From an uncultured Bacilli bacterium (lineage in GTDB: Bacteria > Bacillota_I > Bacilli_A > RF39 > UBA660), in the NCBI GenBank assembly GCA_947628535.1, contig CANRAF010000001.1:93120-157119 (forward strand): a stretch of 64,000 nt of DNA, read 5' to 3'. Positions within the stretch are counted from its first letter, which is position 1. Every line of letters begins with the position of its first letter. Shown in pieces: positions 8,786-57,846 of the stretch. Both the position numbers and the translations under genes were made by a program. Under the pieces are notes generated by a model. The model was not told where the DNA came from. It ran no database searches and saw only the letters and a program-made list of their open reading frames with translations.

Positions 8786-8936
8786 TTTTATACACCTCTT
8801 TTTATGCGATTGTATTGTAGCATATTTTTTATATCTTCTCAAGTTTTATTCAAATTAAAAAGCCTATTTTTAGGCTCTTTTTTTTATTTTTAGTTTGTTA
8901 TAATTTGTTCTTGTGGTTTTAAAAATATTATTTTTA

Positions 8937-10286
8937 TTATTTTCCAACACAGAAGTTTTTAAATAGATTATCTAAAAGTTCTTCGGTGTATGATTCTCCA
9001 ATTACTTCTCCGAGAAGATTCCAGATATTTTTTAAATCTATTTCTAACATATCTATTGGAAGATTTTCTTTTAATCCTGTTTCTATATCTTTTACGCTTT
9101 CTTTAGCTTGTTCTATTTTATTTAGCTGTTCAATACTAGAAACATAAGAAAAATCATTTGTTTCTATTTTTTCAAGACTAAATAATTCTTTTATTTTATT
9201 TAAAAGATTTTCTATTCCTTCTTCTTTTTTAGTACTTGTATATACTATGTTTTCAAAATTTTGACTTAAATTTAAATTTTTCTTTAAGTCTGTTTTATTT
9301 ATTACAATTATTCTTGTTTTATTATTTGATATTTTAAGTAGTTCTTCATCCTCTTTTGTTAATTTTTCATTATTATTTAGTATTAGTAGAACTAAATCTG
9401 CTTTATTAAGGACATTTTTAGATTTTTCTACTCCTATTTTTTCTACTATATCTTCGGTTTCTCTAATTCCCGCAGTATCTATTAGATTTAAGGTTATACC
9501 CTCTAAAATTAGGGTTCCTTCGATAATATCTCTTGTTGTTCCAGGAACATTGGTAACTATTGCTTTTTCTTCTTCTATTAATTTGTTTAAAATACTACTC
9601 TTTCCGACATTTGGTCTTCCTATTATTGCTACGTTTATTCCTGATTTTATTATTTTACTGGTTTTAGAGTTTTCTATTATTTCATCTAAAGACCTTTTTA
9701 TTTCAGAAAGTTCTTTTTTTATTTTATCTATTGTTACTTTTTCTATATCTTGATATTCTGGATAATCAATATTTACTTCAATATTACTTATTATATTTAC
9801 TAATTTTTCTCTTAGGGTTCTTATTTTATTGGTTGTTGTTCCACGAAGATTATTGATAGATATTTTTCTCGCTTTATCACTTTTACTATTTATTAAATCC
9901 ATTACTGCCTCACTTTTAGTAAGGTCTATTCTTCCGTTTAAAAAGGCACGTTTTGTAAATTCTCCAGGTTCTGCTATTCTTATTCCTTGTTTTAATAAAA
10001 TACTTAATACTTTCTCTGTTGGTGCTATTCCACCATGACAATTTATTTCAATAGTATCTTCTGTTGTAAATGTTTTGGGACCTTTCATTATAGTTATTAG
10101 TACTTCATCTATTATTTCATCTTTATCTTTTATATATCCATATGAAATTGTATGTGTTTTTTTTGTTAATAAGTTTATATTTGTTATATTATTTACTTTT
10201 TCTATTGCATCTTTTCCGCTTACTCTTATTATGGATATAGCTCCAACACCTAGAGTTGTTGATATAGCAGCAATTGTATCATCCAT
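8937..10286 (-). CDS. mnmE: tRNA modification GTPase MnmE (TrmE)
   Basis: N-terminal MDDTIAAISTTLGVGAISIIRVSG, G-domain GRPNVGKSSILN, and the C-terminal CVGK motif. Confidence 0.9.
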   Translation of the reverse strand: MDDTIAAISTTLGVGAISIIRVSGKDAIEKVNNITNINLLTKKTHTISYGYIKDKDEIIDEVLITIMKGPKTFTTEDTIEINCHGGIAPTEKVLSILLKQGIRIAEPGEFTKRAFLNGRIDLTKSEAVMDLINSKSDKARKISINNLRGTTTNKIRTLREKLVNIISNIEVNIDYPEYQDIEKVTIDKIKKELSEIKRSLDEIIENSKTSKIIKSGINVAIIGRPNVGKSSILNKLIEEEKAIVTNVPGTTRDIIEGTLILEGITLNLIDTAGIRETEDIVEKIGVEKSKNVLNKADLVLLILNNNEKLTKEDEELLKISNNKTRIIVINKTDLKKNLNLSQNFENIVYTSTKKEEGIENLLNKIKELFSLEKIETNDFSYVSSIEQLNKIEQAKESVKDIETGLKENLPIDMLEIDLKNIWNLLGEVIGESYTEELLDNLFKNFCVGK

Positions 10287-10368
10287 TGATAGCCCTCCTT
10301 TTTAAAGCTAGTCTATTATAACACTTTTTTGTAAAAAAGAGAAGATCTTTTTGGCCTTTGATATTTTG

Positions 10369-11707: not shown

Positions 11708-12620
11708 TCCTTTTTAAGGTGAAATTTTGGAATATTGTAAATAATGATGATGTTACCCAATAAAATGAAATTGCTGTTGGTAAAGTAAATGAGATAAATC
11801 CGATGAATACTGTCATTATTCTAGTCATTAATTTTTGTTGTTTTTCCATTTGCTCATTTGAAGCCATTGATGGATTTAATTTATAAGAGAAATAAGTAGC
11901 TGCAATTAGTATAACACATACAAATATATAATACCAATCACCTGCTGCCATAGCAGATCCTGGAGTTGTTCCCATATTTAATCCTATAAATGTTCCTTCA
12001 AAAATGGCTGGTACTCTATTTATTGCTTCCCAAAATGCCAAGAGAATTGGAAGTTGAATAAAAGCAAATAAGCAACCTGAAAGTGGTTTTATTTCGTATT
12101 TTTTATATACCAACATCATTTCCTGACCTTTTTTTGCCATTGATTCATTATCTGTTTTTCCTTCATATTTCTTTTCTATTCTATTAATTTCTGGTTGGGC
12201 TTTTTTCATATTTTCTGATTGAAGAAGAGTTTTTCTAGTCATAGGAAATAATGCAAATCTTATTATTAATGTAATTATTACTATTGATAAAGCTGGAGAT
12301 CCTACTAAAGATCCTATTTTTATTATGAAAAATGCTAAAGGTCTTACAAAAAATGTATTCCATAAGTTTTCATATTTGCCCACTATTTTCATATCATCGC
12401 AGTCTGGTAAGTCTTTAATATCTACTTTATTTTTTTCATATATTTTTAAAACATCTTTATCAGTTGGCTTACAAATTATGTTTTCTGTTATTGTTTGCCC
12501 TGTTTCTTCATTCTGAACTACTTTTCCATCTTTATCTTTTAATGTTTGAGTACATCCTGTTAAAGTTATTATAAGCATAAATATGACTAATACTTTTAAA
12601 ATTTTTGTTTTTTTATTCAT
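11691..12620 (-). CDS. yidC: Membrane protein insertase YidC/SpoIIIJ (lipoprotein form)
   Basis: Lipobox LTGC followed by the YidC TM core (PLSGCLFAFIQLPILLAFW...). Conserved position next to rnpA. Confidence 0.85.
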   Translation of the reverse strand: MNKKTKILKVLVIFMLIITLTGCTQTLKDKDGKVVQNEETGQTITENIICKPTDKDVLKIYEKNKVDIKDLPDCDDMKIVGKYENLWNTFFVRPLAFFIIKIGSLVGSPALSIVIITLIIRFALFPMTRKTLLQSENMKKAQPEINRIEKKYEGKTDNESMAKKGQEMMLVYKKYEIKPLSGCLFAFIQLPILLAFWEAINRVPAIFEGTFIGLNMGTTPGSAMAAGDWYYIFVCVILIAATYFSYKLNPSMASNEQMEKQQKLMTRIMTVFIGFISFTLPTAISFYWVTSSLFTIFQNFTLKRSGKNE

Positions 12621-12954
12621 TTTTATCTCCTTTTATTTTATTAAAAAGATATATTATCTCTTTTTCTAACTGTTTATAATCTAAATCAATAGTTTCTTTT
12701 TTACATATTATTATATATGTTTCATTTTGTTTATAAATATTTTCATTTTTATCTATTATATTTTTTATTCTTCTTTTTAATTTATTTCTTGTTACAGCAT
12801 TTGCTATGTTTTTGGCAAAAGTAATACCAAATTTTGGAATATTATCTTTATTTTGTTCTTTATTAATTATAAAATATTTACTACTATAGCCTTGTCTTTT
12901 TCTTATTATTCTATTGAAATCTTCTGATTTTTGGACGATATTTTTTTTTTTCAT
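12613..12954 (-). CDS. rnpA: RNase P protein component
   Basis: Basic 113-aa protein (MKKKNIVQKSEDFNRIIRKRQ...). Conserved position between rpmH and yidC. The likely start is the ATG at 12954, which lies inside an A11 run. Confidence 0.85.
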   Translation of the reverse strand: MKKKNIVQKSEDFNRIIRKRQGYSSKYFIINKEQNKDNIPKFGITFAKNIANAVTRNKLKRRIKNIIDKNENIYKQNETYIIICKKETIDLDYKQLEKEIIYLFNKIKGDKNE

Positions 12955-12998
12955 TTTTACCTCCATAATCAAAAATCCACTTTTGATAGTGGATTATT

Positions 12999-13124
12999 TT
13001 ATTTAGATAATCTTTTTCTTCCTTTTTTCCTTCTTTTATTTACTATTCCTGATTCCATACGAGAGAAGAAACCATGTTTTTTCTTCATTCTTCTATTATT
13101 TGGTTGATATGTACCTTTTTTCAC
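12999..13124 (-). CDS. rpmH: 50S ribosomal protein L34 (not in the ORF track; GTG start)
   Basis: Reverse-complement translation gives MKKGTYQPNNRRMKKKHGFFSRMESGIVNKRRKKGRKRLSK, which fits the L34 consensus. The RBS GGAGG lies 8 nt upstream. Confidence 0.85.
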   Translation of the reverse strand: MKKGTYQPNNRRMKKKHGFFSRMESGIVNKRRKKGRKRLSK

Positions 13125-13436
13125 TTCTTGCACCTCCAAACTTAATTAGTCGCTACTATTGTATATGAAAAGTAGGGTGGTTGTCAATATTTTTTTAGTT
13201 ATTAACAGAATAAACGTTAATTAACTTTTTTTATTTTAACAATTGTTAATAGTGTTATTAACTTTTTTCTTGAAATTTGTTAAAAACTATTTTATAGTAT
13301 GTATTTAAAGGAAAAAATATGTTGATAAGTTTGTTAATAAGTATGTTAATTAATATTTTAACTTTTCAAAAATTTAAAAATGTATTACAATTAAATTAAC
13401 TTGTTAATACTTTGTTTTTAGTGGGGAGATGGTATT
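13125..13436. promoter_or_regulatory. oriC, upstream DnaA-box cluster plus dnaA promoter region
   Basis: Repeated 9-mers TTATTAACA, or its reverse complement TGTTAATAA, at about 13199, 13245, 13255, 13332, 13345 and 13402. This is one mismatch from the canonical TTATNCACA box. The position between rpmH and dnaA is the standard oriC location. Confidence 0.6.
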
Positions 13437-14813
13437 ATGGATAATAATTTGTTATGGCAAAAAGTTTTAGATAATATTAGTAATATCGTTGACCCTTTGT
13501 CTTTTGATACTTGGTTCAAAAATATTGATTTTATAGATATCCAAAATCATTCAGTTAGATTAGTTATTCCAATAATGTGGTATAAAAGTCATATTGATAA
13601 TAATTATAAAGATATTATTTTAGAAAATTTTAATAATTTAATTAAAGATAATAATGTTGATAGTATTATATATATATTAAAAGATAATGTTGAAGATTTT
13701 TTAGAAAGTGAAAAGAGTAGTAATACTTCTTTGGAAGAAAAAAAAGAGAGTAATTATGTTAAAAATCATGTTTCTAATTTAAATAAAAATTATACTTTTG
13801 AAAGTTTTGTAGTAGGGGAGTCTAATAAATTTGCACAAGCTGCAGCTTTGGCAGTTGCTGAAAATCCTGGAACTATGTATAATCCTTTATTTATATATGG
13901 TAATAGTGGACTTGGTAAGACTCATTTGATGCATGCAATTGGAAATTATATTGAAAGTAAACTGCAAAAAAGAGTTTTATACGTTACTAGTGATGATTTT
14001 ATGAATGATTTTACAGGACTTGTTAGAAAAAATAGTAATGTTAATAACTTGGATTATGTTGATTTTTTCAAAAATAAGTATCGAAATATTGATGTTTTAC
14101 TTATAGATGATATCCAGTTTTTAGGAGGCGCAGAAAAATCACAACAAGAATTTTTCCATACTTTTAACAATTTATATAATGATAGTAAGCAAATTATTGT
14201 GTCATCTGATAGATCTCCTGAAGATTTAAAAGTTTTAGAAGATAGACTTAGAACACGTTTTGCCTGGGGTCTTCAGGTAGATATTAGTCCTCCTGATTAT
14301 AATTTAAAAGTTGCAATTATTAAGAATAAGTTAAAAAGAGAAGATATTGTTATAAATGAAGATGTTATATCTTTTATAGCTTCAAATATTGGTAATGATG
14401 TAAGACAACTTGAAGGTTCTATTACAAGACTTGTTGCTTATTCTGCAATCATGTGTGTTACTGATATTACACTTGATTTTGCAATGGAGGCATTAAAAGA
14501 TTTTACAAAGAAAGATAGTGTAACTGACCAAAATAATATAAGAAGAATTCAAAAAAGCGTTGCTAATTTCTATAAAATATCTTTTGAGGATATGAAATCA
14601 AAGAAAAGAACTCCAAATCTTGCTATTCCAAGGCAGGTTGCTATGTATTTATGCAGAAAACTTACTGATGAGTCATTTGAAAGAATAGGTATTGAGTTTT
14701 CTGGTAAAAATCATGCTACAGTAATACATGCTTGTAATAAAATTGAAAAAGAAATGAAAATAAATAAAGATCTAAATAATGCTATTGCTGATATTGAAAA
14801 GCAATTAACATAA
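13437..14813 (+). CDS. dnaA: Chromosomal replication initiator DnaA
   Basis: AAA+ Walker A (GNSGLGKTHLMHAIG) and a C-terminal DNA-binding domain. Confidence 0.95.
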   Translation: MDNNLLWQKVLDNISNIVDPLSFDTWFKNIDFIDIQNHSVRLVIPIMWYKSHIDNNYKDIILENFNNLIKDNNVDSIIYILKDNVEDFLESEKSSNTSLEEKKESNYVKNHVSNLNKNYTFESFVVGESNKFAQAAALAVAENPGTMYNPLFIYGNSGLGKTHLMHAIGNYIESKLQKRVLYVTSDDFMNDFTGLVRKNSNVNNLDYVDFFKNKYRNIDVLLIDDIQFLGGAEKSQQEFFHTFNNLYNDSKQIIVSSDRSPEDLKVLEDRLRTRFAWGLQVDISPPDYNLKVAIIKNKLKREDIVINEDVISFIASNIGNDVRQLEGSITRLVAYSAIMCVTDITLDFAMEALKDFTKKDSVTDQNNIRRIQKSVANFYKISFEDMKSKKRTPNLAIPRQVAMYLCRKLTDESFERIGIEFSGKNHATVIHACNKIEKEMKINKDLNNAIADIEKQLT

Positions 14814-19865: not shown

Positions 19866-22316
19866 ATGGATCATAGTAGAGATAGATTAGAAGAAAATAA
19901 TATTGTTAATGAAATAGAAACATCATTTCTTGAATATTCAATGAGTGTAATTGTATCTAGGGCTCTTCCTGATTTAAGAGATGGTTTAAAACCTGTTCAT
20001 CGTAGAATTTTATATTCTATGTATGAATCTGGTTATACTCCTGATAAACCTCATAAAAAGAGTGCGAGAATAGTTGGGGATGTTATGGGTAAATATCATC
20101 CTCATGGTGATAGTTCAATTTATGAGGCTATGGTAAGAATGGCTCAGGATTTCAATTATCGTTATATGTTAGTTGATGGACATGGTAATTTTGGAAATAT
20201 TGAAGGTTATGGAGCTGCTGCTATGCGTTATACAGAATCTAGACTTTCAAAAATTTCATTAGAACTTTTAAGAGATATAAATAAAAATACAGTTGATTTT
20301 GATGATAATTTTGATGAATCTGAAAAGGAACCTTCGATTTTACCTAGTAGATTTCCTAATATTTTAGTTAATGGTACTATGGGAATTGCTGTTGGTATGG
20401 CAACAAATATTCCTCCACATAATTTGGGAGAAGTTATTGATGGTTGTGTTGCTTATATTGATAATAACGATATAACAGTCGATGAACTTATGGATTATAT
20501 AAAAGGTCCTGATTTTCCTACAGGTGCTGTTATTTTAGGTAATAGTGGCATTAGAAAGGCTTATGAAACAGGAAAAGGAACAATTACAATAAGAAGTAGG
20601 GCTAAAATTGAGGAAAAGGATGGCAAACATTGTATAATTATTGATGAAGTTCCATATGGAGTTAATACTTTGGAACTAAAAAACAAAGTAGCAGAACTTG
20701 TTCATAATAAGGTTATTGATGGTATTTCTGATTATCACACTGATTTAAAAGATGGTGTTAAGATTACTATTACTTTAAAAAGGGATGCAAATCCTCAGGT
20801 GATTTTGAATAATTTATATAAGCATACTCAATTTCAAACTAATTATGGGATAAACTTTTTGATGCTTGATAATGGTGTTCCAAAGAGTTTAGGACTTAAA
20901 GATATTATTTCTAAATATATTGATTACCAAAAGGAAATAATTATAAGAAGGACAAAGTTTGATTTAGATAAAGCTGAAAAGAGAGTACACATTTTAGAAG
21001 GACTTAAGATAGCACTTGATAATATTGATGAAATTATAAAACTTTTAAGAGCTGCAAGAGATGATGAGATTGCAAGAACTCAATTGATGGATAGATTTGA
21101 TTTAACTGAAGCTCAGGCTAATGCTATTTTGGAAATGAGACTTAGAAGACTTACTGGTCTTGAAAGAGAAAAAATTGAAAATGAACTTGCAGAACTTCTT
21201 AAGAAGATAGTTGAATATAAAGCTATTCTTGAATCTGAAGAAAAAGTTTTAGGTATAATTAAGGAAGAACTTCTTGAAATTAAAGAAAAATATGGTGATG
21301 AAAGACGTACAAGTATTGATATGACTGCTATTGATTATATTGAAGACGAATCTTTGATTCCAAATGAAAATATTATGATATCACTTACTAAAAACGGATA
21401 TATCAAACGTTTGTGCGTTGATACATACAGAACTCAAAATCGTGGTGGCGTTGGTATTAGAGGTATGTCTACGAATGAAGAAGATTATGTTGAATTATTA
21501 GTAACTTGTCTTTCACATGATTACTTATTATTCTTTAGTAATTTTGGAAAGGTTTATAGAATTAAGGGGTATGAATTACCAGAATTTGGCAGACAATCTA
21601 AGGGTGTTCCTATTGTTAATATCTTATCACTTGAAAAGGATGAAAGAATTAATACAATTATTTCTGTTAGTAAGGAAGAAGAATGTAGTAATTTAATGTT
21701 CTTTACTAAGAATGGTTTGGTTAAGAGAACAGATATTACTGAGTTTGATTCAATTAGAAAAAATGGAAAAATTGCAATTACACTTAAAACTGATGATGAG
21801 TTAATTAGTGTTAAAAAAACTAATGGTAATGATGAGGTAATTATGGCTTCAAATGCTGGACGTATGGTTAGATTTAATGAGAATGATGTCCGTGTTATGG
21901 GAAGAAGCGCTTCAGGTGTTAGAGGTATAGATTTAGGAGATGCTAAAGTAATTGGTGCGGAAATTGTTAATATCTCTCAATTAATCTTAGTCGTAACTGA
22001 AAAGGGTTATGGAAAGAAAACTTCTGTTGATGAATATCGTTTAACTCATCGTGGTAGTAAGGGGGTTAAAGCTCTTAATATTACTGATAAAAATGGTTTG
22101 ATTGTTGCGTTTAAAGCGGTTAATGGTGATGAGGATTTAATTATTTCTACTGATAGTGGAATTGTTATTAGGTTAGATGTTAATAAAATATCAACTTTAA
22201 GACGTAATACTCAAGGTGTTAGATTAATTAATTTAAAGGATAATCAAATTGTTACTTCTGTTACTGTTACTGAAAAAAATGAGGAAACAGAACAAGAAGA
22301 GGTAAATGAAAACTAA
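19866..22316 (+). CDS. gyrA: DNA gyrase subunit A
   Basis: Active-site region (AAMRYTE) and C-terminal beta-pinwheel repeats. Length 816 aa. Confidence 0.95.
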
Positions 22317-22343
22317 TGTTTCACGTGAAACATTAGTTTTTTT
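22313..22343 (+). terminator. gyrA intrinsic terminator formed by a 24-bp perfect palindrome
   Basis: CTAATGTTTCACGTGAAACATTAG starts inside the gyrA stop codon and is followed by TTTTTTT. Confidence 0.7.
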
Positions 22344-22396
22344 CTTTCATATATACAAATGTATAAAAGGTAAACTACATATATTATTAATATTCA

Positions 22397-22607: not shown

Positions 22608-22644
22608 TATTAGTTATTAGGTTTAATTTATTTAAATAATAGAT

Positions 22645-22666
22645 CAATGTTTCACGTGAAACATTG
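22645..22666. repeat. Palindrome CAATGTTTCACGTGAAACATTG copy
   Basis: Perfect 22-bp palindrome, identical to the copy at 23249-23270. Confidence 0.85.
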
Positions 22667-22798: not shown

Positions 22799-23212
22799 AT
22801 GAATAAATATATGAATTTAGCTATAGAGGAAGCAAAAATTGCTGCTAAAGAGGGAAATGTTCCTGTGGGAGCGGTTATTGTTAATAACGATAAAATTATT
22901 TCAATAAAGCATAATACAAAAAATACTTCTAATATTGCTATAAACCATGCTGAAATACTTTGTATTATTGAGGCGTGTAATAAATTAAATTCATGGTATT
23001 TAAATGATTGCGATTTATATGTTACTTTAAAACCTTGTAATATGTGTATGGGTGCTATTGCGGAATCTAGGATAAAAAATGTTTATTATTTGTTAGATTC
23101 TACTTACTATGAAAATTATAATAATAAACAACATACAAATGTTTATAGAATTGAAGATAATAGTAATTATAAGGAATTAATAAGTAATTTTTTTATAAAT
23201 TTAAGAGACTGA
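22799..23212 (+). CDS. tadA: tRNA-specific adenosine deaminase (CDA fold)
   Basis: Zinc motifs HAE...PCNMCMGAI. RBS GGAGGAAAG precedes the ATG at 22799; the ORF track starts earlier at 22772. Confidence 0.85.
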   Translation: MNKYMNLAIEEAKIAAKEGNVPVGAVIVNNDKIISIKHNTKNTSNIAINHAEILCIIEACNKLNSWYLNDCDLYVTLKPCNMCMGAIAESRIKNVYYLLDSTYYENYNNKQHTNVYRIEDNSNYKELISNFFINLRD

Positions 23213-23229
23213 TGTTTCACGTGAAACAT
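23212..23229. repeat. Palindrome ATGTTTCACGTGAAACAT copy overlapping the tadA stop codon
   Basis: Starts at the last base of the TGA stop, the same geometry as at gyrA. Confidence 0.85.
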
Positions 23230-23248
23230 AATAGAGCAAGAAAAAATT

Positions 23249-23368: not shown

Positions 23369-23402
23369 GTGTGATTTTTATTTTTTATTTATATTTATGA
23401 AA

Positions 23403-23428
23403 ATATATGTTTCACGTGAAACATATAT
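23403..23428. repeat. Palindrome ATATATGTTTCACGTGAAACATATAT copy
   Basis: Perfect 26-bp palindrome upstream of dnaX. Confidence 0.85.
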
Positions 23429-23496
23429 CATTTTCTTGGTTGTATTAAATTGATTTGTTATGATATAATAAATTTATCTTTTTTGGGGGTGTGACA

Positions 23497-35956: not shown

Positions 35957-36640
35957 ATGGAAATTAAAGAGGATAATCAAAGAAAATTAATACTATCAGT
36001 TTTAGGAGTTGCAATATTAGTAGTTGCAGTAATTGGAATATCATTTGCAATATATCAAGCTACATTTAGTCAAAATGATGCTAATAGTATTCAAACAGGA
36101 ACTATTACTGTTAGTTATACAGAACCTAGTAATGCTATTAGTATTTCTGATGCAATGCCAATGGCTGAAAAAACAGCTCTAAAACAAGATAATAATAAAT
36201 TTGAATTTACTGTTACTACTGGTGCAAGCGGAAGCCTTACAGTACCATATGATATTAGTATTACGAAAATTGAAGAAAGTGATAATAATTTGAATGATGA
36301 AAATGTTAGAGTTTATTTAACAAAAGAGGATGAAACCCCAGTTGACTTAAGTACAAAAGAAGAGTCAAATGCTTTATACAAATCGTCAAATTCAAAATCA
36401 AGGCTTATTTCTGAATTAAATGAATATAGTGGGCGTAAGGAAGAAAAAGCAAAACTTTTATATAGCGCACAAGATGTGTTTAATGGTGATAATTCTGAAA
36501 CAACAAAATCTACAAAGTATGTTCTTAGAATGTGGGTAGATAAGAATTATCCAATGGATAATGGTACTGTTTCAAAAACATATAAAGCTAAAGTAAATGT
36601 TGATTCAGTAGTAACTCCACTTGGAACAAAAACAGAATAA
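35957..36640 (+). CDS. TasA/camelysin-family secreted protein, subtype A, copy 1 (SipW-cognate signal)
   Basis: Signal: K-rich n-region, h-region, then GISFA|IYQ. The mature N-terminus (DANSIQTGTITVSYTEPSNAISISDAMP) aligns with TasA (DATFASGTLDLSAKENSASVNLSNLKP). The C-terminal motif is YVLRMWVDKNY...KTYKAKVNVD. Confidence 0.75.
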   Translation: MEIKEDNQRKLILSVLGVAILVVAVIGISFAIYQATFSQNDANSIQTGTITVSYTEPSNAISISDAMPMAEKTALKQDNNKFEFTVTTGASGSLTVPYDISITKIEESDNNLNDENVRVYLTKEDETPVDLSTKEESNALYKSSNSKSRLISELNEYSGRKEEKAKLLYSAQDVFNGDNSETTKSTKYVLRMWVDKNYPMDNGTVSKTYKAKVNVDSVVTPLGTKTE

Positions 36641-36670
36641 TAGATAATAATGTTATGGAAGGAGAAAACT

Positions 36671-37435
36671 ATGGAAAATAATATAAATGACGATAACAAT
36701 AAAAAAACATTAATATTATCAATTTTGGGAATACTTGTTTTGATAATTGCTGTAGTTGGTGTTTCATTTGCAATGTACAAATTTACAGGAACAGGGACTC
36801 AAGAAAATGTAATTACAACAGGTACTGTCAATATGAGTTTTGATAATGAAGAAGGTAATAATATTTCTCTTACTAACGAATATCCCATGACTGATGAATA
36901 TGCAATACAAAGTAAGGATACTCATAAATCAGAATTTACTATAACTGCTAATTTGTCTGTAGAATCATCAGTTGCTATAGCTTATAGTATAGGAATTGAT
37001 GATCAAAATATAGAAGAAGGGGAAACTTTAAAGAAAGAATATATCAAAATAGCTTTACTTGATGACGATAATAATATATTAGTTGGGACTCCAAATGGAC
37101 TAGATAGTCAAGAATTAACAGGAGGAACTTTAATATCTGAACTTGAATCTCAACAAGATAATTTAATAAATAAATATATGCTTGCTCATAAACTTATTAC
37201 AGGAAGTAATACTTCGGATAAATATACTCTTTATGCATGGGTTGCAGACACTTATAATTTACCTACTGGTAATGACAATAAAGATTCAACTCTTGATGAA
37301 AATGTTATTAAGACTGAAGAAGATGATAAAACAAAGCAAGAAAAGACAACAAAATCTGAAACTTTTAAATTTAAATTAATAGTAAAAGCAAAGCAATTAC
37401 TTGATGAAGAAGAATATGAAGAATATCAACAATAA
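36671..37435 (+). CDS. TasA/camelysin-family secreted protein, subtype B, copy 1
   Basis: Signal ...GVSFA|MYKFTGTG. C-terminal motif YTLYAWVADTYN...ETFKFKLIVKAKQ resembles TasA FSFEATQ. The RBS-supported start is at 36671; the ORF track starts at 36650. Confidence 0.75.
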   Translation: MENNINDDNNKKTLILSILGILVLIIAVVGVSFAMYKFTGTGTQENVITTGTVNMSFDNEEGNNISLTNEYPMTDEYAIQSKDTHKSEFTITANLSVESSVAIAYSIGIDDQNIEEGETLKKEYIKIALLDDDNNILVGTPNGLDSQELTGGTLISELESQQDNLINKYMLAHKLITGSNTSDKYTLYAWVADTYNLPTGNDNKDSTLDENVIKTEEDDKTKQEKTTKSETFKFKLIVKAKQLLDEEEYEEYQQ

Positions 37436-37556
37436 GGAACATTTTTATATTTTAATAAAAAGTAGATAAAGTGAATATTATTTTTTACTTTATACTTCTT
37501 TTTTTATTAATAATTTTAGTATTATTGAAATTGTAAGGTTAAAAAAATATAAAATA

Positions 37557-37585
37557 TTGATTTTTATTCATTTATATTGTACTAT
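37557..37585 (+). promoter_or_regulatory. Sigma-A-like promoter of TasA-like module 2 (duplicate)
   Basis: TTGATT, 17 nt, TACTAT. The flanking sequence is near-identical to the module-1 promoter. Confidence 0.5.
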
Positions 37586-37607
37586 TGGTATAGTAAGGAG
37601 AATAGTG

Positions 37608-38267
37608 ATGGAAATAAAAGAAAATGGTCAAAAAAAATTATTGTTATCAATTTTGGGAGTGGCTATATTAGTTATTGCGGTAATTGGGATATCATTTGCA
37701 ATATATCAAACTACGTTTGATCAAGCAACTGCTAATAGCATTAAAACAGGGACTATTACTGTTAGTTATACAGAACCAAGTAATGCAATTGATATTGAAG
37801 ATGCAATGCCTATGAGTGAAAAAACAGCTTTAGAGACATTAAAGACAAGTAATAAAACATTTGATTTTACAGTTACTACTAAAGCAAGTGGGGAATTGAC
37901 TGTACCATATGAAATTAGCATTACAAAAGTGAGTGGTAGTTCAACTTTAGATGAGCAATATGTAAGAGTTTATTTAGAAAAAAATAATGGACCTGTTACT
38001 CTAATTGGTGAAAACGCAGTTCAAAAGGAAGGATTATATTCGAATCTCATTTCTAATTTAAAGGATTCAACGAAACGTCAAGATGGAACTAAACTTTTAT
38101 ATAGCACTAGTGATACTTTTGATAGTGAAAATAGTACAGCAATAAATACTACATATAAACTTATAATGTGGTTGGATGAAAACTATCAAATGGACAATGA
38201 GACTCAAACAAAAACATATAAAGCCAAGGTAAATGTTGATTCGGCTGTAACTCCAATCGCACAATAA
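37608..38267 (+). CDS. TasA/camelysin-family secreted protein, subtype A, copy 2
   Basis: Paralog of 35957-36640, with the same signal and GISFA|IYQ site. Start at 37608 after RBS GGAG. The ORF-track start at 37557 falls inside the promoter. Confidence 0.75.
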   Translation: MEIKENGQKKLLLSILGVAILVIAVIGISFAIYQTTFDQATANSIKTGTITVSYTEPSNAIDIEDAMPMSEKTALETLKTSNKTFDFTVTTKASGELTVPYEISITKVSGSSTLDEQYVRVYLEKNNGPVTLIGENAVQKEGLYSNLISNLKDSTKRQDGTKLLYSTSDTFDSENSTAINTTYKLIMWLDENYQMDNETQTKTYKAKVNVDSAVTPIAQ

Positions 38268-38305
38268 TAAAAAAATTTTTAAATATATGATGAAAGGAGA
38301 TAAGT

Positions 38306-39046
38306 ATGGAGAATAGTAATAATAAGAAAGTATTAATGTTGTCAATTTTAGGAATAATTGTGTTAATAATTGCAATTGTTGGTGTTTCATTTGCAATGTA
38401 TACTTTTTCGGGAACTGGAACTAAGACAAATGTAATTACAACTGGAACAGTGAATATGAGCTTTGAAAATGGTAAAAATGTTATTAATGTTGATAATCAA
38501 TATCCTATGGAAGATTCAGTGGCAATAACAAAAGAAGAAAATCAAACAAAATTTAGTGTTACTGCAAATTGGGGTTCTGCTCCATTAGCTATAAAATATG
38601 ATATTGGGATTTTGACCCCTTTTACTGAAGGAGATACTTTAAAGGAAAAACATATCAAGATAGCTTTGGTGGATGGTTCAGGGAACATATTGGTCGGGAC
38701 TCAAGAACCAGCTAAAGAAATAGAAGCAGAAAAGCATAATTTGACAGGTGGAACTTTGATGTCAGAACTTAAAAGCCAAAGTGGAGATTTAATAAAAGAA
38801 TATTGGCTTGCTAACGGACTTATTACAAATAGTGGACAAAAGGATGAATATACCCTTTATGCGTGGGTAGATAAGGATTATAATTTGCCTTATGGAGAAA
38901 GCAATGATGATTCTAGTGCTAATGTAGAAGCTCCTAGTACTACTGATGGAAATGATCAAAGTGTTAAACACGAAAAGACTACAAAAAGTGAAACTTTTAG
39001 TTTTAAAATTAAAGTGCAAGCTGAACAATTAATTGACGAAGACTAA
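38306..39046 (+). CDS. TasA/camelysin-family secreted protein, subtype B, copy 2
   Basis: Paralog of 36671-37435 with GVSFA|MYTFSGTG and a C-terminal ETFSFKIKVQAEQ. Confidence 0.75.
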   Translation: MENSNNKKVLMLSILGIIVLIIAIVGVSFAMYTFSGTGTKTNVITTGTVNMSFENGKNVINVDNQYPMEDSVAITKEENQTKFSVTANWGSAPLAIKYDIGILTPFTEGDTLKEKHIKIALVDGSGNILVGTQEPAKEIEAEKHNLTGGTLMSELKSQSGDLIKEYWLANGLITNSGQKDEYTLYAWVDKDYNLPYGESNDDSSANVEAPSTTDGNDQSVKHEKTTKSETFSFKIKVQAEQLIDED

Positions 39047-39199
39047 TAATAGTTTATATTTATAAAAAGTAGATAGAAAAAACATTATGAAAAATTTCGA
39101 TCTACTTTTTTTTAAATAATAATTAATGTCTAATTTTTCCTTTTAAAATATATTATTTTGTGGTAATATATTATTATAAGTTTATAGTAGGTGTTGCTT

Positions 39200-40297
39200 A
39201 TGAATGATGATAAAGAAGAATTAAATATTCAAGAAGAGAAAATAGCAGATGAAGTAGCGGATGAAATACTAACTGTTGAGAATGATGAATATGAACAAAG
39301 ATCTTTTTGGTTTATTGTTTTATTTCTTTTTTGTTTGATATTTTTAGTTTCATCTCTTTCATTTGCAGTGTTTGATACTTATTATAATGGTGAAAGTAAC
39401 AATGTGATTACTGTTGACGTTGATGAAAATGTAACTCAATGTGACAAGAACTGTGATACAGATAATGATGGTATATGTAATTATAACTGTGATATGAATA
39501 ATGATGGTATATGCGATAAAAATTGTGACAATGATAGTGATGGAAAGTGTGACGAAAATTGTGATGATTCTTATAAAAAACCTAGCAATAATTATTATAG
39601 TGTTTGTAAAACTAATTGTGATGTAAATAATAATGGTATATGTAATTATAATTGTGATACAAATAACGATGGTAACTGTGATAAAAACTGCGATACCAAC
39701 AATGATGGAGTATGTGATAAACATTGTGATAGCTCATTTCAAAAGCCAGAATATCCTAATAATCAAGATGGGAATGGTGATGAAGGAAATGATGTGGAAT
39801 CTGGTACTAAGCCACAACCAAGTGAATCAGAAAAACCTGCTTCAGGATCAATATTATTTTCGTTTAATGAAGAATCAAATTATATAAATATGACTGGTGT
39901 ATATCCTACTTCTGATACTATTGGTAAGAAGCTTGTTGGGGATAGACAATATTTTGATTTTAGTATTTCTGCTTCAATGAATAAAAATAAAGGAAATTTA
40001 GTATATGAAATTTCACTTGTACCAATTAGTGAAAATACAATTCCTGAAAATATGGTTAGGGTTTATTTGACTGAAAATGGAAAGGATGTTTCGATACTTG
40101 ATAAAACTATAAATAATTATAGTGAATTACCTAATAGTAAATATAGAAATGGTGGTAAGGTAATTTATAGCAAAAAAATAAGTAAAAATTATAATGGAGA
40201 ATATGTATTTAGAATGTGGCTTTCTTCAAAAGCGCCTGTTTATAATTCTTCAAAGAAATTTGGTGTAAAAATAGCTGTTAATGCATACTACAAATAG
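39200..40297 (+). CDS. Chimeric secreted protein: acidic N-tail, SipW-type signal, two blocks of Cys-containing TSP3-like Ca-binding repeats, and a TasA-like C-terminal half
   Basis: Signal ...SSLSFA|VFDTYY. About seven 12-aa repeats (NYNCDTNNDGNC / DKNCDTNNDGVC; D-x-[DN]-x-D-G loops with two Cys each) at nt 39437-39730. The C-terminus (MVRVYLTENGKDVS...YVFRMWLSSKAP...KKFGVKIAVNA) is paralogous to the TasA-like proteins. Confidence 0.7.
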   Translation: MNDDKEELNIQEEKIADEVADEILTVENDEYEQRSFWFIVLFLFCLIFLVSSLSFAVFDTYYNGESNNVITVDVDENVTQCDKNCDTDNDGICNYNCDMNNDGICDKNCDNDSDGKCDENCDDSYKKPSNNYYSVCKTNCDVNNNGICNYNCDTNNDGNCDKNCDTNNDGVCDKHCDSSFQKPEYPNNQDGNGDEGNDVESGTKPQPSESEKPASGSILFSFNEESNYINMTGVYPTSDTIGKKLVGDRQYFDFSISASMNKNKGNLVYEISLVPISENTIPENMVRVYLTENGKDVSILDKTINNYSELPNSKYRNGGKVIYSKKISKNYNGEYVFRMWLSSKAPVYNSSKKFGVKIAVNAYYK

Positions 40298-40300
40298 TTA

Positions 40301-40954
40301 TTGAAAGGATTGGTTGGTGTGAAAAACATAATTAATAGAATTTTTAAGATTATTTCATCTGCTATTTTTGTTTTGTTAGTGCTTCTAATTATATTAATTA
40401 TTTTTTATATTGTTCGAGTAAATTTTATGGCTAGTAATGACAAATTAGGCGATGTTAGAATCAACTTTTATACTATTTTAACTCAAAGTATGTATCCCAC
40501 TATTAAAGCGGGAGATATAGTTATTACTTATAAATCATTAGATGGAAAATATAATAATGGGGATGTTATCACTTTTGTTTCAGATAATAATGGAGGTATA
40601 ACTGTAACCCATAGAATTGTTGAAGTTTTTAATGTTAATAACAATTATTCTTATAAGACTAAGGGAGATAATAATAATGCTCCTGATAATGATGTTATTT
40701 CTGAAGATCATGTACTGGGGAAAGTTGTTATGAAAATTCCTAAGGTTGGGTATATACAACAATTTTTAGTTAGTAAAACTGGATGGATTGCTGCTGTTAT
40801 ATTACCATGTTTAGGAATAGTTATTTATGATATACTTAAATTGTTTAGACTTGCTGCGAGAAAAGGTAAGAATCTTATTGTTCAAGATAAAAGAACAGAA
40901 GATGCTAGAAAAAGATTAAAAGAGGTGTATGAAGATGAAAGTGAGGAAGAGTGA
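40301..40954 (+). CDS. sipW: Signal peptidase I, SipW type (S26B, archaeal/ER-type)
   Basis: Catalytic Ser box (TILTQSMYPTIKAGDIV) and His box (VTHRIVEV) with a single N-terminal TM helix. The likely start is the GTG at 40319, after RBS AAAGGA. Confidence 0.8.
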   Translation: MKGLVGVKNIINRIFKIISSAIFVLLVLLIILIIFYIVRVNFMASNDKLGDVRINFYTILTQSMYPTIKAGDIVITYKSLDGKYNNGDVITFVSDNNGGITVTHRIVEVFNVNNNYSYKTKGDNNNAPDNDVISEDHVLGKVVMKIPKVGYIQQFLVSKTGWIAAVILPCLGIVIYDILKLFRLAARKGKNLIVQDKRTEDARKRLKEVYEDESEEE

Positions 40955-41570
40955 TTTTGATGTTAGTACAGATGATTTAATGTTTAAGGAAGAAGTTCCA
41001 GAGGGAGATCTTTATAGCAAAGTTAATGTAGATGATAGAATTTTTGAAGATAAGGCCGTTAGGAAGAAGAGAACAACATATTTAATTGTTTTAGCTATTA
41101 TTTTAATTATTTGTTCTATTCTTTGTGCTATTTTTGGGTTTATTTATTTAGATAAACAACTTAAAGATAGAATAAATAATCCAGTGGTAGAAAAATATGA
41201 TTTGTTTGTTGGTCATTCTAATAGTACTTATGGTGGAGAAATTTCTTCATTTGCTAAATATAATAGTGAAAACAGTGCTTTTTCATATAATTTTTATGTA
41301 AGCAATAACAATCCAGTTGATCTTGATTACTCTATTTTACTTGCTAATTTGGATTATGATAATAGTAAAATTGATATGACACTTATACAGTATAGTTTAC
41401 TAAAAGATAATGAAGTAGTAAAAACAGGTTATTTAGAAGATGAAAAAGATAATTTGTTATATGAAGATACTATTAAATCTAATTTTACTGATAATTATAC
41501 TGTTAAACTATGGAGTGATAAACTTTCTAAAAACAACAAATTTAACTTTAAAATCAATATAGGGGTATAA
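40929..41570 (+). CDS. Membrane/secreted protein with a 48-aa cytoplasmic N-tail, SipW-like cleavage motif and a TasA-like C-terminal motif
   Basis: Overlaps the sipW 3' end (translational coupling). TM/signal ...SILCA|IFGF. C-terminal YTVKLWSDKLSKNNKFNFKINIGV resembles the Y.L..W.D...K motif of the paralogs. Confidence 0.6.
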   Translation: MKMKVRKSDFDVSTDDLMFKEEVPEGDLYSKVNVDDRIFEDKAVRKKRTTYLIVLAIILIICSILCAIFGFIYLDKQLKDRINNPVVEKYDLFVGHSNSTYGGEISSFAKYNSENSAFSYNFYVSNNNPVDLDYSILLANLDYDNSKIDMTLIQYSLLKDNEVVKTGYLEDEKDNLLYEDTIKSNFTDNYTVKLWSDKLSKNNKFNFKINIGV

Positions 41571-54778: not shown

Positions 54779-54794
54779 TAGACTTAGAAAAAGG

Positions 54795-54822
54795 CACATG
54801 TAGTTGTGCTTTTTTTGTGCTT
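54795..54822 (+). terminator. Rho-independent terminator
   Basis: GCACA-TGTAGT-TGTGC hairpin followed by T7. Confidence 0.6.
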
Positions 54823-54881
54823 TACTAAGAAAAAGAAATGAGTTATAATAAATGTATAAGAAACTAAAGGAGTGAGTCCAA

Positions 54882-57846
54882 ATGAAGAAAATAATGTCTG
54901 GGGGGGGGGTTATATAAAAGAAAAATAAAATATATAACATCTCTAATAATAACAGTAGTAGGACTACTGTCTTTAATGGTGGGAACAAGTTATGCAATAT
55001 TAAAAGGAGAAGCAGAAAGTAAAGAACAGCAAGTAATAAAAGCAGGAAGTGTAGAGTTAGAACTAAAAGAATATTATGAAAGTATGAATAAAGGAATAGA
55101 AGTAAAAGAAGATAAAGATGGATTACTTGGAGAACCATATAAATTTAGTATAAAGAACATAGGAAGTGAAGTAGCAAAATATGATGTAAAACTAGTTAAT
55201 GAAGCAACAGAAAATAAAATACTAGATAAATATATAAAGATAGGTCTAGAAGTCAATGGAGAAGAAATGGGACCAATGAATATAGAAGAAGTAAAGAAAA
55301 TAATAGATAGTAATATAATAAATGAGAAAGAGATAATAAACTATAGTTTAAGGATATGGTTAGATAAGGAACATGAAGAAGAGATATTAAAAATAGAAGA
55401 TGGAAAAGCAATATTGAAAATAGAGGTAGAAGCGAAACAAAGAGAATATGAAGAGAACTTAGATAAAAGTGGGGCAAATAAACCAGTGTTATCAGATTCA
55501 ATGATACCAGTATATTATGATAGTAAGAAAGATGTATGGAAGAAAGCAGACAAAGAAAATAAAGATTATGAATACAAATGGTATGATTACAATAATAAGA
55601 TGTGGGCGAATAGTGTAACATATGATCATACAAAGTTAGCAAATGAAAGCAAAACAAAAATAGAAGGAAAGACATTCAATGGAACAAGTGATTATATAAA
55701 TATGGGATATGCAAATAAAGAATTAGGAAATCAAATAACACTAGTTGCAAGATTTAAGGCAAAGGAAATTAAGAATGCAGTAATAGTTGGAAATGTACAA
55801 CATGCAGGAAGTAATATATATTTAGATAACAATAATTACATAAAGTTTGATATATATTCACAAGAGAATGAACATTATGTTGGAGCAGATTCAAAAATAG
55901 TAGCGGAACCAGACAAATGGTATACAGTGGTAGGAACATATGATGGAGTAACTATGAAGTTATATGTTAATGGAGAATTAAAAGGAACAAAAGAAACAAC
56001 AGATAAAATAAAACCATCACCAATGCCAATAACAATAGGAGCAAATCCAGAGACTAATAATAAATATACAGATTATTTCAGTGGAACAATAAGTGATGCA
56101 TTAGTAATAAAAGATGCAATAGATGAAAATACAATAAAGAAGAATTATTCAGGAGAAGTAAATCATATAGATAACAAAAATCAATTATTCTATTCAAAAT
56201 TTGATAATAAAATAGGAAATATAAATGAAGCACAATATACAAATGAGGGAATGACATTTGATGGAGAAAATGACTATGTAAATGTAGGACTTGCTAATTA
56301 TGACTTTGGAAATAATATAACCCTTGCAGCAAGATTTAAAACAAATTTGTCAAACAATACTTCAAGTCAAGATATAATATCAAACATAGATTCATCAGGA
56401 GCATATATAAATGTGAATTCAAGCAATGTTATAGATTTTGCAGTATATTCACAAATAGAACAAAAATATATCCATACTGATATTACAAAGAAAGCAGATA
56501 AAAATGAGTGGTACACAGTAGTAGGAACATATGACGGAAAAAACATGAGAATATATGTAAATGGAGAGTTAGAAGGTACAGCAGAACTAACAGATGCGAT
56601 AAAGAAAACATATATTCAATATTTAATAGGGGCAAATCCGAATAGAGATAAACATGGAGAATACTTTAACGGAACAATAAGTGATGCATTGATAATGAAG
56701 AATGCATTAACAGACGATGAGGCAATTAAATTAAGTAGAGAAGATAATTTTGATGATTATTCAAAAGATGAAAATACGCTTGTATATAATAATTTAAGAA
56801 GTTACGAATCAAGAGCAAATGGAACAGAAATGCCAATGGATATGATATCAACTATGCAGGTGTGGATACCAAGATTTAATGCAATAACTCCATCAAATTA
56901 TAATGGAGGAACTACGGATAATCCAGGACCAATAAATGTAACATTAAAGAATTCAAATCAAAAATCTTTAGATGCCTTTAACTTTGGAGGAAAAGAACTT
57001 TCTGGATTTTGGGTAGGAAAATTTGAAAATAGCGCACCAAATATCCCAACAAAAGAAGATAATACAGAACAAATAGTAATAGTAAAACCAGATGTACAAT
57101 CATGGCATTGGAGCAATATAAAAACATTCTTTAATTCAATGCAACATATGACTAGTACTGGTAATATATATGGCTTTGATAAAAATACAAGTACAGCCTT
57201 AGATACCCATATGATGAAGAATAGAGAATGGGGAGCAGTAGCATATTTAACGCATAGTAAATATGGATTGTGTAAAAATGCAAAATGTAAAGAAATATAT
57301 AAAAATAATAGTGGTGTTAATTATAATGTTAATAGTAACATTATTAACATAAATCCTCCTTATACAGGAAGAAGTAGTGGAGCACCATCAACAGATAATG
57401 ATTATACTCAATATGGGACATATTCATATGATGGATATAAATTAAATGGCAATAATAAAACATCAGAAAGAGACATAAGTAAAGTAGCAAGTACAACAGG
57501 GAATATATATGGAATATATGATATGAGTGGTGGTTTATGGGAATTTGTAATGGGTAACTATAATAATACAATAGGGCAATCAGGATTTACAGAAGAAGAG
57601 TATAATAGTATAAAAGAAAAATATGTAGATGTATATACTGGAACATCATATGATGGTCATGCTTTAAGTGAAACCGCTGGTTGGTATAATGACTATAAGA
57701 AATTCGTTATCTCTAATTATTCTTGGTTTAATCGTGGTGGCGCATATGTAAATAATAATATAGTTGGTTTGTTTTTCTTTTCTAACATTGGTGGAAATGC
57801 TCACAGGTATGGTGCCTCCCGGCTAATTATCTCAAATATAAAATAA
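54882..57846 (+). CDS. Large secreted surface protein: SipW-type signal, TasA-like N-domain, two LamG/ConA-like domains and an FGE-sulfatase (SUMF1)-like C-domain. Frame-shifted at a poly-G tract (phase-OFF as sequenced).
   Basis: The ATG at 54882 with RBS AAAGGAGTG encodes MKKIMS-(G10). With 9 or 12 G it fuses to the 54976 ORF, giving MKKIMSGGGLYKRKIKYITSLIITVVGLLSLMVGTSYA|ILKGE. TasA-like motif YSLRIWLDKEHEE...ILKIEVEAKQ. LamG blocks at about 55670-56160 and 56250-56730 (WYTVVGTYDG...LYVNGEL). FGE-like motifs REWGAVAYL and IYDMSGGLWEF lie toward the C-terminus (about 57220-57545). Confidence 0.7.
54900..54909 (+). repeat. Homopolymeric G10 tract (candidate slipped-strand phase-variation switch)
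   Basis: Ten consecutive G in a roughly 27% GC window. It lies between the signal-peptide start codon and the body of the 956-aa ORF. A -1 or +2 change in length restores the frame. Confidence 0.85.

Follow-up and report, generated by a model that had tools for sequence, protein, structure and literature searches.

A candidate phase-variable adhesin joining a SipW-associated pilin-like domain to laminin G domains and a C-type-lectin-fold head in an uncultured gut Bacilli bacterium

This work examines a 64,000-nucleotide stretch of DNA from an uncultured Bacilli bacterium (contig CANRAF010000001.1), referred to here as the window, in which one plus-strand gene raises a twofold question: what kind of surface protein has been assembled from its unusual set of domains, and is this copy of it in a state to be exported? 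A first-pass annotation, made from the sequence alone, described the open reading frame (ORF) at 54976-57846 as a fusion of a TasA-like N-terminal domain, two laminin G (LamG)-like domains, and a domain resembling the formylglycine-generating enzyme (FGE), and proposed a fiber tip or adhesin subunit of an architecture not previously described. The ORF encodes 956 amino acids (aa), and every motif quoted in that description lies where it was said to lie: YSLRIWLDKEHEE at aa 123-135, ILKIEVEAKQ at aa 146-155, WYTVVGTYDG...YVNGEL twice (aa 315-335 and 512-532), YF(S/N)GTISDAL at aa 367 and 563, REWGAVAYL at aa 750-758, and IYDMSGGLWEF at aa 847-857. Our favored answer, to which we assign a probability of roughly 0.6, is that the gene, one of a large family of paralogs in uncultured gut Bacilli, encodes a phase-variable adhesin of a fiber tip or of the cell surface. 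The copy in the window is out of frame at a poly-G tract within its signal peptide. Coordinates of all features are collected in Table 1.

The domain description given by the first-pass annotation began "after the signal," but the product read from 54976 begins MVGTSYAILKGE (MVGTSYA) and has no signal peptide; the n-region and hydrophobic region lie upstream, put out of frame by a run of ten G residues (G10). The N-termini of P0002 and P0003, the two closest relatives, read MKKIIPGGGLYKRKIKYITSLIITVVGLLSL and MKKFMSGGGLYKRKIKYITSLIITVVGLLSL; they are in frame, with MKK..GGGLYKRK intact. P0003 is probably encoded by a paralog located on the contig that also carries the database copy of the window gene (P0001), for which the call is the same shortened 956 aa starting MVGTSYA. 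The segment that follows the tract in the frame of the main ORF, LYKRKIKYITSLIITVVGLLSLMVGTSYA, comprises a basic n-region and a hydrophobic core of 17 residues and ends in small-aromatic-Ala. Cleavage would fall after SYA, as we infer from the hhalign register in which SYA is placed on the TWA of TasA and from the presence of a SipW-type peptidase in the window. If the tract is shortened to G9, the ATG at 54882 reads through to a 987-aa precursor. With G10, no ATG, GTG, or TTG occurs between the in-frame stop at 54892 and position 54976, so this allele is unable to yield an exportable protein. Since translation ends after 11 codons and the sole downstream start lacks an export signal, the copy is OFF here, while the 2.9-kb ORF is otherwise intact and free of decay. 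Neither the frameshift nor the OFF state had been noticed in the first-pass annotation, which also overlooked the connection to diversity-generating retroelements (DGRs) set out below.

Poly-G contingency genes of Campylobacter jejuni, Neisseria, and Helicobacter are switched ON and OFF by reading frame, with many such genes per genome. The window tract is like these loci in being a run of G9-G10 in the 5' coding region of a surface-protein gene; it is unlike them in its host, an uncultured low-GC gut Bacilli bacterium, and in that its switching is putative. Chance is a poor explanation for its length: the genome has 27% GC, and no other G run of at least 8 occurs in the window, where shuffled sequences predict 0.05. 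A scan of GTDB representative genomes confirmed >537 relatives of the gene, several per genome, under metagenome-assembled genome (MAG) labels such as uncultured Bacilli, Tenericutes, "Mycoplasma sp. CAG:611," "Acholeplasma sp. CAG:878," and Ca. Onthousia. For a survey of tracts, the best 80 loci (best identity, 54%) were fetched, amounting to 1.0 Mb with the family gene set on the plus strand. These contained 33 runs of at least 7 G and no such runs of C. Among the 75 family genes with upstream DNA, 23 (∼30%) carry a run of at least 7 G between positions -500 and +200 relative to the ORF start, and family tracts are 7-13 G long and always on the sense strand. A degenerate DNA pattern of the window tract and its flank gave no match in the JGI metagenomes.

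The family tracts fall into three classes. The first lies in the signal-peptide n-region, as in the window gene, and comprises coding tracts of G10 to G13 whose frame was worked out individually: three loci are ON (L075, with G13, and L082 and L083, both with G10, which are the same gene from two samples) and nine are OFF (the window, L009, L018, L049, L060, L065, L066, L070, and L081). Among proteins, eight contain an in-frame Gly-Gly-Gly at this position and are ON (P0002, P0003, P0008, P0009, P0013, P0069, P0093, and P0116), P0069 being the product of the L075 gene. In the second class (L013, L014, L020, L025, and L045), the tract occupies a promoter spacer of the form TTGACA-N-polyG-N-TATAAT or TATGAT, which suggests transcriptional phase variation upstream of family or neighboring genes; these tracts are G8-G10 within 19-nucleotide (nt) spacers (L013, 1943-1952; L045, 7315-7324; L014, 2311-2318; L020, 7756-7763; L025, 7083-7090). 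Tracts of the third class lie in a conserved element, gaaagaaggtATG...gtttacaaNNgttacctG(7-11)...tttagaagcttaagtaCTTTCTTTcat, which is located ∼60-190 nt upstream of family ORFs and has flanks that complement each other (GAAAGAAGGTA / TACTTTCTTTC); a short leader ORF enters the G tract. The element was observed at L050 (270, 7211, 9177, and 11150), L061 (5188 and 7235), L037, L038, L048, L058, L063, L069, L071, and L072. As a separate observation, a transposase pair of insertion-sequence type (HTH_Tnp_1 plus rve; L081, 1578-2755) lies immediately upstream of an OFF-phase family gene.

As expected of homopolymer slippage, the coding tract sets the frame from within the 5' coding region and differs in length and frame among homologues. 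We rejected poly-G read artefacts of NextSeq/NovaSeq sequencing as an origin of these runs, since the tracts are internal to contigs, with uninterrupted coding sequence on either side, occupy a single position in the gene and invariably its sense strand, and are translated as Gly-Gly-Gly in the in-frame alleles. In its recurrence, the family pattern resembles contingency loci and not read-end artefacts. A rival explanation is that the window gene is an ordinary frameshifted pseudogene, or that a homopolymer error in sequencing or assembly has lengthened a true G9, the G run having no regulatory role in either case. Long G runs are error-prone, and there is a single assembly of the locus, whose database copy has the same shortened call; moreover, eight of the nine OFF coding tracts are ON length plus one G. 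We consider this quite unlikely, given that a G10 is far above chance at this GC content, that sense-strand runs of G7-G13, with no poly-C, recur in the n-region or promoter of ∼30% of family genes from many independent MAGs, that in-frame and out-of-frame states both occur, that the two samples represented by L082 and L083 agree on G10 in the ON state, and that the remainder of the 2.9-kb ORF has been preserved. The same excess of ON-plus-one tracts (window 54900-54909, L009, L018, L049, L060, L065, L066, and L081) may have arisen through biased mutation, through selection for the OFF state, or because +1 alleles are decodable. The last of these amounts to a distinct explanation, in which ribosomal +1 or RNA-polymerase slippage on G10 restores the frame, so that "OFF" would denote a low-expression allele; an excess of ON+1 tracts is what would be expected if decodable ON+1 alleles were selected. 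We judge recoding to be very improbable: we identified no stimulatory element, the same genes also have in-frame alleles, and, to our knowledge, the known poly-G contingency loci act at the DNA level.

The case for a fiber starts from the N-terminal domain. An AlphaFold2 (AF2) model (predicted local distance difference test [pLDDT] score of 80; predicted template-modeling [pTM] score of 0.74) shows this domain as a beta-sandwich of nine strands whose N-terminal arm is disordered. A profile hidden Markov model (HMM) built from the N-domains of relatives matches six further ORFs of the window at 84 to 24 bits, all flanking a SipW-type (archaeal-type) signal peptidase I gene in a cluster 14 kb upstream of the adhesin gene; the corresponding E values, 5e-27 to 2e-8, come from a tiny database, and the bit scores stand alone. 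The N-domain aligns end to end with all six proteins, including the SYA/SFA that follows the hydrophobic segment, and the alignment shares (V/I)G(T/I/V)S(Y/F)A, G-x-V, F-x-V, Y-x-L-R-x-W-x-D, and a last K-x-K-V strand. The terminal motif that the first-pass annotation saw as common to this domain and its "TasA paralogs" thus reflects true homology. The peptidase scores 106 bits against the SipW equivalog, under that model's cutoff of 190. As in TasA systems, then, a SipW-type peptidase is found in the neighborhood, among the paralogs, 14 kb from the adhesin gene.

Whether these proteins are members of the TasA family is a separate matter. Pfam and NCBIfam searches gave no match at all in the N-domain, the six paralogs matched no Pfam family, and none of these sequences hit a TasA, camelysin, or SipW-type signal-peptide family. 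Peptidase_M73 (PF12389), which the first-pass annotation had named for a profile check, was absent from the paralogs and from the N-domain, whether or not the signal peptide was restored. A profile search of 5.8 billion proteins retrieved 284 relatives of the N-domain, the best 120 of which are mostly ∼200 aa long; among those 120, none has PF12389, one has a Pfam domain at all (PF09479), and the sole name is "hypothetical protein," whereas PF12389 was present in 120 of the 120 listed TasA relatives. For direct comparison, a TasA sequence was verified against 8aur and extended to an alignment of 25 members. The hhalign comparison of the two family profiles gave 17% over 61 columns (13% with the single sequence), in a sensible register that sets SYA on TWA, GxVxL on GTLDL, and FxVxNxGS on FxLxNxGS; the similarity to TasA consists of the end of the signal (TWA versus SYA) followed by the G-x-(L/V)-x-L and F-x-V-x-N-x-GS strands in the same register. 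The comparison did not reproduce the correspondence between the last strand and the FSFEATQ of TasA that the first-pass annotation had put forward, and values of 13% and 17% are too weak for a claim of TasA family membership. A Foldseek search of the Protein Data Bank (PDB) with the N-domain model returned nothing below an E value of 1e-3, and TasA was outside the top 50; the weak matches included the bundling pilin AbpA, an archaeal homolog of TasA (7ueg; E value, 6e-3), a cannulae subunit (9h8b; template-modeling [TM] score, 0.43), and the pilin domains of PapG and FimG. The N-domain is modeled as a beta-sandwich, a fold that it may share with TasA and AbpA, the latter being among its top, if weak, matches. 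Of the designation "TasA-like," homology to the subunits beside SipW stands, and the link to TasA itself is weakly supported. From its sequence relationships, we regard the N-domain as the pilin-like domain of an unannotated SipW-associated family, for which "SipW-associated pilin-like domain" is a safer name than "TasA"; that it belongs to the TasA superfamily is plausible but unproven. One paralog, at 39191-40297, has a long N-terminal insert with Cys/Asp/Asn-rich repeats (NCDxNNDGxCDKNCD...; repeats at 39440-39747), which may bind calcium or be disulfide rich.

Homology to the cluster subunits, together with the two precedents discussed below (TafC and type V tips), is the reason why we favor a fiber and a tip position within it. 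The alternative is a monomeric surface lectin that forms no fiber, either anchored in the membrane by its N-terminal hydrophobic segment or using the pilin-like domain simply as a stalk. Such a protein would suit a family whose genes are dispersed and unlinked to sipW, whose heads in some relatives are carried on transmembrane anchors, type-IV-pilin-like N-termini, or very short N-termini, and whose N-domain bears a weak structural likeness to pilins that assemble by donor-strand exchange. It fits less well with the end-to-end alignment to six sipW-cluster proteins, up to and including SYA/SFA, in an arrangement like those of TasA/TapA-SipW and TafA/C/E-TafD, and we hold it to be unlikely. Among 83 other loci, no SipW was found within 8 kb of family genes, so operon linkage is unusable as evidence.

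Beyond the N-domain, a conserved connector (aa 162-220) leads into the lectin-like part of the protein. Its consensus in relatives is LDxSGANxP...MIPVYYD...WYDYxxKMWANSVT, and in two relatives without LamG (P0020 and P0036), it is directly joined to the MQVWIPRY of the C-terminal domain. The two LamG domains of the window protein were called correctly in the first-pass annotation: Pfam Laminin_G_3 (PF13385) matches two stretches with an E value of 4.4e-42 and 144.2 bits against a cutoff of 27.6, and the two protein repeats of ∼196 aa correspond to DNA repeats 582-591 nt apart. Laminin_G_3 is also present in 12 of 16 relatives, which have two, one, or no LamG domains between the connector and the C-terminal domain. 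Because the number varies at this one site, we interpret LamG domains as optional inserts in a core made up of the N-module, the connector, and the head. A sequence search of the PDB with the family profile gave LamG-type matches alone and none for the N- or C-terminal domain.

For the C-terminal domain, the AF2 model of aa 596-956 (pLDDT, 79; pTM, 0.86) has the FGE/C-type-lectin fold, and FGE-fold proteins make up ranks 1-39 of its Foldseek matches in the PDB: TaqVP (E value, 1.4e-6) is followed, in order, by FGEs (∼1e-4), PvdO, PorK, TvpA, Mtd, EgtB, and OvoA, with CarF also in this range. Among viral models (BFVD), phage SUMF-like and tail-collar fiber proteins were retrieved at E values of 7e-9 to 1e-4. 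The resemblance to FGE/SUMF1 (PF03781) extends to the RGG motif and to the IYDMSGG block that produces a weak Pfam match at aa 812-893 (E value, 7.8e-5; 22.9 bits, just under the cutoff of 23.3); relatives score 14.6-19.5 bits or do not match, and every relative tested falls below the cutoff. It could thus be argued, from this match and from the presence of FGE, EgtB, and OvoA among the Foldseek matches, that the domain is an enzyme of FGE/SUMF1 or EgtB type and the protein an exported modifying enzyme. FGE has a catalytic Cys pair located after its RGGS motif. The window protein has only two cysteines, C766 and C771, which precede its RGG motif (920-922) by ∼150 residues and lie in a loop that is missing from many relatives; no Cys pair follows the motif, and there is no DinB-type iron domain. 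The best structural matches are nonenzymatic DGR variable proteins and phage fiber heads, relatives bear DGR variable regions in this very domain, and the context in the window is an extracellular adhesin. An FGE-type enzyme was accordingly rejected, and we consider this explanation exceedingly improbable. With its nearest structures being DGR variable proteins and phage fiber heads and with no catalytic Cys, the domain is read from its model as a probable binding head, for which "FGE-sulfatase-like" describes the fold and not the function.

The family of this head is large: out of 1.84 billion, 2,902 cluster representatives match it at an E value of at most 1e-3 and 1,803 at at most 1e-10. 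Giant proteins (P0367, 3,713 aa; P0369, 4,516 aa; P0370; and P0402) contain 6-10 stretches that match it, and the fold therefore also occurs in tandem arrays. In P0004, P0010, P0076, and P0111, the connector and C-type-lectin head sit on short N-termini consisting of a signal peptide and one SYALF...strand; these are possible strand-donor-only caps. Other N-terminal modules on the same connector and head (P0023, P0047, P0056, and P0073; P0014, P0042, and P0058) include type-IV-pilin-like KGFA N-termini or plain transmembrane anchors, which points to modular swapping of surface anchors.

The structural matches to TaqVP (5vf4), TvpA (2y3c), and Mtd (1yu0) place the head among the folds diversified by DGRs, in which a template repeat (TR) feeds hypermutation of a variable region (VR). 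In several loci of the family, the last ∼115 nt of the gene recur downstream, and in seven of them (L030, L032, L051, L053, L067, L075, and L076), an extreme C-terminal VR differs from its TR with an adenine bias. A reverse transcriptase (RT) motif, IGNYTSQ...YMDD in the DGR-bearing relatives, was found in five of the seven (L032, L053, L067, L075, and L076), and L076 has an avd-like gene and an RT with LPIGNYTSQFFAN...YMDD. Differences between TR and VR fall at template adenines in 15 of 15 cases in L030, 17 of 17 substitutions in L067, 11 of 12 in L076, 19 of 21 in L032, and 24 of 28 in L075. The family head is thus a genuine DGR target type in relatives. L075 combines a coding poly-G switch with an active-looking DGR on one adhesin (P0069; gene at 7853-9950, in-frame G13 at 7899-7911, TR at 10209-10339, and RT near 11840). 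In the window, there is no second copy of 57600-57846, hence no TR, and neither a DGR RT motif nor avd; the VR-equivalent DNA is AT rich, with a faint GC-rich remnant but no GC-rich initiation-of-mutagenic-homing (IMH) sequence. Unlike the DGR variable proteins that its C-terminal domain resembles, the window gene is therefore treated as a static member and is not called a DGR target, with a DGR elsewhere in the genome being possible. A further observation concerns tandem arrays beside LamG-less family genes (L076, 11213-12457; L067, 7731-9041; L053, 7117-8467), with a period of ∼330-350 nt. Each array is made up of 4-5 differing Asn-rich, TR-like units that end in an identical TCGTTCCGCCTCGTGATG, and it stands immediately upstream of avd-RT; the VR of the adjacent gene fits one unit only. 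The arrays may amount to a "TR library"; alternatively, their units could be used by paralogs whose VRs lie elsewhere.

Several described systems share parts of this design, and the claim of the first-pass annotation that no architecture of this kind had been described was too strong: TafC (PMC11821415) and the tips of Bacteroides type V pili (bioRxiv 10.1101/2024.11.15.621889) are close functional analogues. TafC, from the Tat-fimbriae of Haloarcula hispanica, joins a major-subunit-like N-domain to a laminin G domain, makes up ∼1% of subunits, and has been modeled at the tip of a donor-strand-exchange filament; its cluster holds the signal peptidase I TafD (PMC11821415). It resembles the window protein in its pilin-like domain, LamG, and nearby signal peptidase I, and it differs in having twin-arginine translocation (Tat) signals, one LamG domain, no C-type-lectin head, an archaeal host, and no reported phase variation. 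TafC (NCBIfam NF052521) was also the sole named family that matched the window protein, at 34.6 bits against a cutoff of 410 and through the LamG part alone. The Bacteroides tip adhesins BfrT, BthT, and BunT consist of a pilin domain and a C-type-lectin head that is either static or DGR diversified (bioRxiv 10.1101/2024.11.15.621889). These tips of gut commensals are like the window protein in following a pilin domain, sometimes through a connecting domain, with a globular C-type-lectin head; unlike it, they belong to unrelated lipoprotein-type pilins in diderm bacteria, lack LamG, and are not described as phase variable in the main text of that study. The TasA/TapA-SipW system of Bacillus subtilis and AbpA have in common with the window system a dedicated archaeal-type peptidase in the cluster (PMC9674648, PMC9245690), whereas TasA itself matches Peptidase_M73 and has no lectin modules. 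In the literature searched, we found no paper joining DGRs and TasA and, among the matches listed, no description of poly-G phase variation in signal peptides for these lineages. The components (a pilin with a lectin tip, poly-G contingency loci, and C-type-lectin DGR targets) are all known; a SipW-associated pilin family that combines them, in gut Bacilli yet to be cultured, appears to be undescribed.

Taken as a mechanism, the favored reading would run as follows. Slipped-strand mispairing in the n-region tract would move the gene between G9 or G12, in which the 987-aa precursor is made, and G10, in which it is not. The Sec-type signal peptide of the precursor would then be cleaved at the end of SYA, with the SipW-type enzyme of the cluster 14 kb upstream as the probable peptidase. 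By analogy with TasA, AbpA, and Taf fibers, the pilin-like domain would tie the adhesin through donor-strand exchange to a fiber of the sipW-cluster subunits, most likely at the tip or else as a minor subunit, leaving the LamG pair and the C-type-lectin/FGE-fold head distal, where they would bind ligands. Poly-G switching, paralog diversity, and, in some relatives, DGRs would make adhesion and antigenicity variable. The fiber tip or adhesin subunit suggested in the first-pass annotation agrees with this picture as far as N-domain homology to paralogs beside a SipW-type peptidase is concerned; the tip position is our interpretation.

Several points weigh against this reading. The G10 was read from a single assembly, in which a one-base error is possible. 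The preponderance of OFF coding tracts that are exactly one G longer than ON (eight of nine) is not predicted by random switching. The adhesin gene is outside the sipW operon, and the family genes of the 83 other loci mentioned above have no SipW within 8 kb. The N-domain is only weakly similar to proven donor-strand-exchange pilins (Foldseek E values of ∼5e-3 and TM scores of 0.36-0.43; hhalign to TasA, 17%). Finally, fiber formation by the six small paralogs and a ligand for the head are both putative.

A broader reading, which we offer tentatively as possible rather than probable, is that gut Bacilli of this kind ("Mycoplasma sp. CAG:611"/Ca. Onthousia-like) build an undescribed SipW-dependent pilus of the TasA superfamily, with tips drawn from a repertoire of paralogs that is varied in three layers: poly-G switches in signal peptides or promoters, modular LamG insertion, and, in some members, DGR hypermutation fed by TR arrays. 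The window gene would be an OFF member of that repertoire. If so, the design of a pilin with a variable lectin head, seen in haloarchaeal tafi and in the type V pili of Bacteroides, would be extended to an uncultured monoderm lineage common in animal guts, and TasA-like fibers, so far viewed as biofilm scaffolds, would be tied to specific, switchable adhesion. The family also allows three diversification mechanisms that act on one binding fold to be compared in a natural setting: homopolymer phase variation, expansion of paralogs, and mutagenesis by DGRs. For annotation, the consequence is a practical one: automated gene calling shortens such genes, as in the database copy that lacks an export signal, and surface-protein repertoires are therefore under-called.

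Table 1. Features of the adhesin gene and of the sipW cluster, in window coordinates
Feature	Positions	Strand	Basis or remark
Hairpin and T-run ending the upstream gene	54794-54816		
Promoter-like site (TTTACT, 17-nt spacer, TATAAT)	54821-54849	+	10/12 consensus matches, best plus-strand site of the region; consensus match alone
Ribosome-binding site AAGGAG	54867-54872	+	9 nt before ATG 54882
True start codon and signal-peptide n-region MKKIMS	54882-54899	+	Relatives P0002 and P0003 start MKKIIPGGGLYKRK and MKKFMSGGGLYKRK
Poly-G tract (G10), candidate slipped-strand phase-variation switch	54900-54909	+	18 nt after ATG; G9 or G12 in frame (ON), G10 OFF
Premature TAA in the start-codon frame	54915-54917	+	OFF product is the 11-aa peptide MKKIMSGGGVI
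Remaining signal peptide in the main-ORF frame	54910-54996	+	Translation
N-terminal pilin-like beta-sandwich domain, aa 8-155	54997-55440	+	AF2 model and N-domain HMM matches
Conserved connector module LDKSGANKP...MIPVYYD...KWYDYNNKMWANSVTYDHTK	55459-55635	+	Invariant columns in family alignment
LamG domain 1, ∼aa 233-385	55672-56130	+	Pfam Laminin_G_3; boundaries from 196-aa repeat offset
LamG domain 2, aa 429-582	56260-56721	+	Best Laminin_G_3 stretch; region also covered by the weak NCBIfam TafC match
C-terminal FGE/C-type-lectin-fold domain, ∼aa 611-956, probable ligand-binding head	56806-57843	+	AF2 and Foldseek
VR-equivalent segment WFNRGGAY...ASRLIISNIK	57724-57843	+	VR position in relatives
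SipW-type (archaeal-type) signal peptidase I	40301-40954	+	NCBIfam TIGR02228, 103.7 bits against a cutoff of 51.85
Six paralogous pilin-like genes flanking sipW, candidate shaft or minor fiber subunits	35957-41570 (35957-36640, 36650-37435, 37557-38267, 38306-39046, 39191-40297, 40929-41570)	+	N-domain HMM: 84, 66, 83, 78, 48, and 24 bits, in that order

The adhesin gene stands among housekeeping genes on the same strand, with ftsH, a dusB-like gene, lysS, and a membrane-protein gene upstream and clpC, gltX, and cysS downstream. Because a hairpin and T-run followed by a promoter-like site precede it, the gene is probably a separate transcription unit. Elsewhere in the window, the GC skew changes sign and gene orientation flips at ∼12000-14000 (genes lie on the minus strand as far as 12972 and on the plus strand from 13437 on), and the window probably spans the replication origin. 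A perfect palindrome, ATGTTTCACGTGAAACAT, is present in intergenic copies at 22306-22361, 22623-22666, 23188-23231, and 23383-23452, with a related 75-nt repeat nearby, and may serve as a binding site for a regulator or represent a family of terminators.

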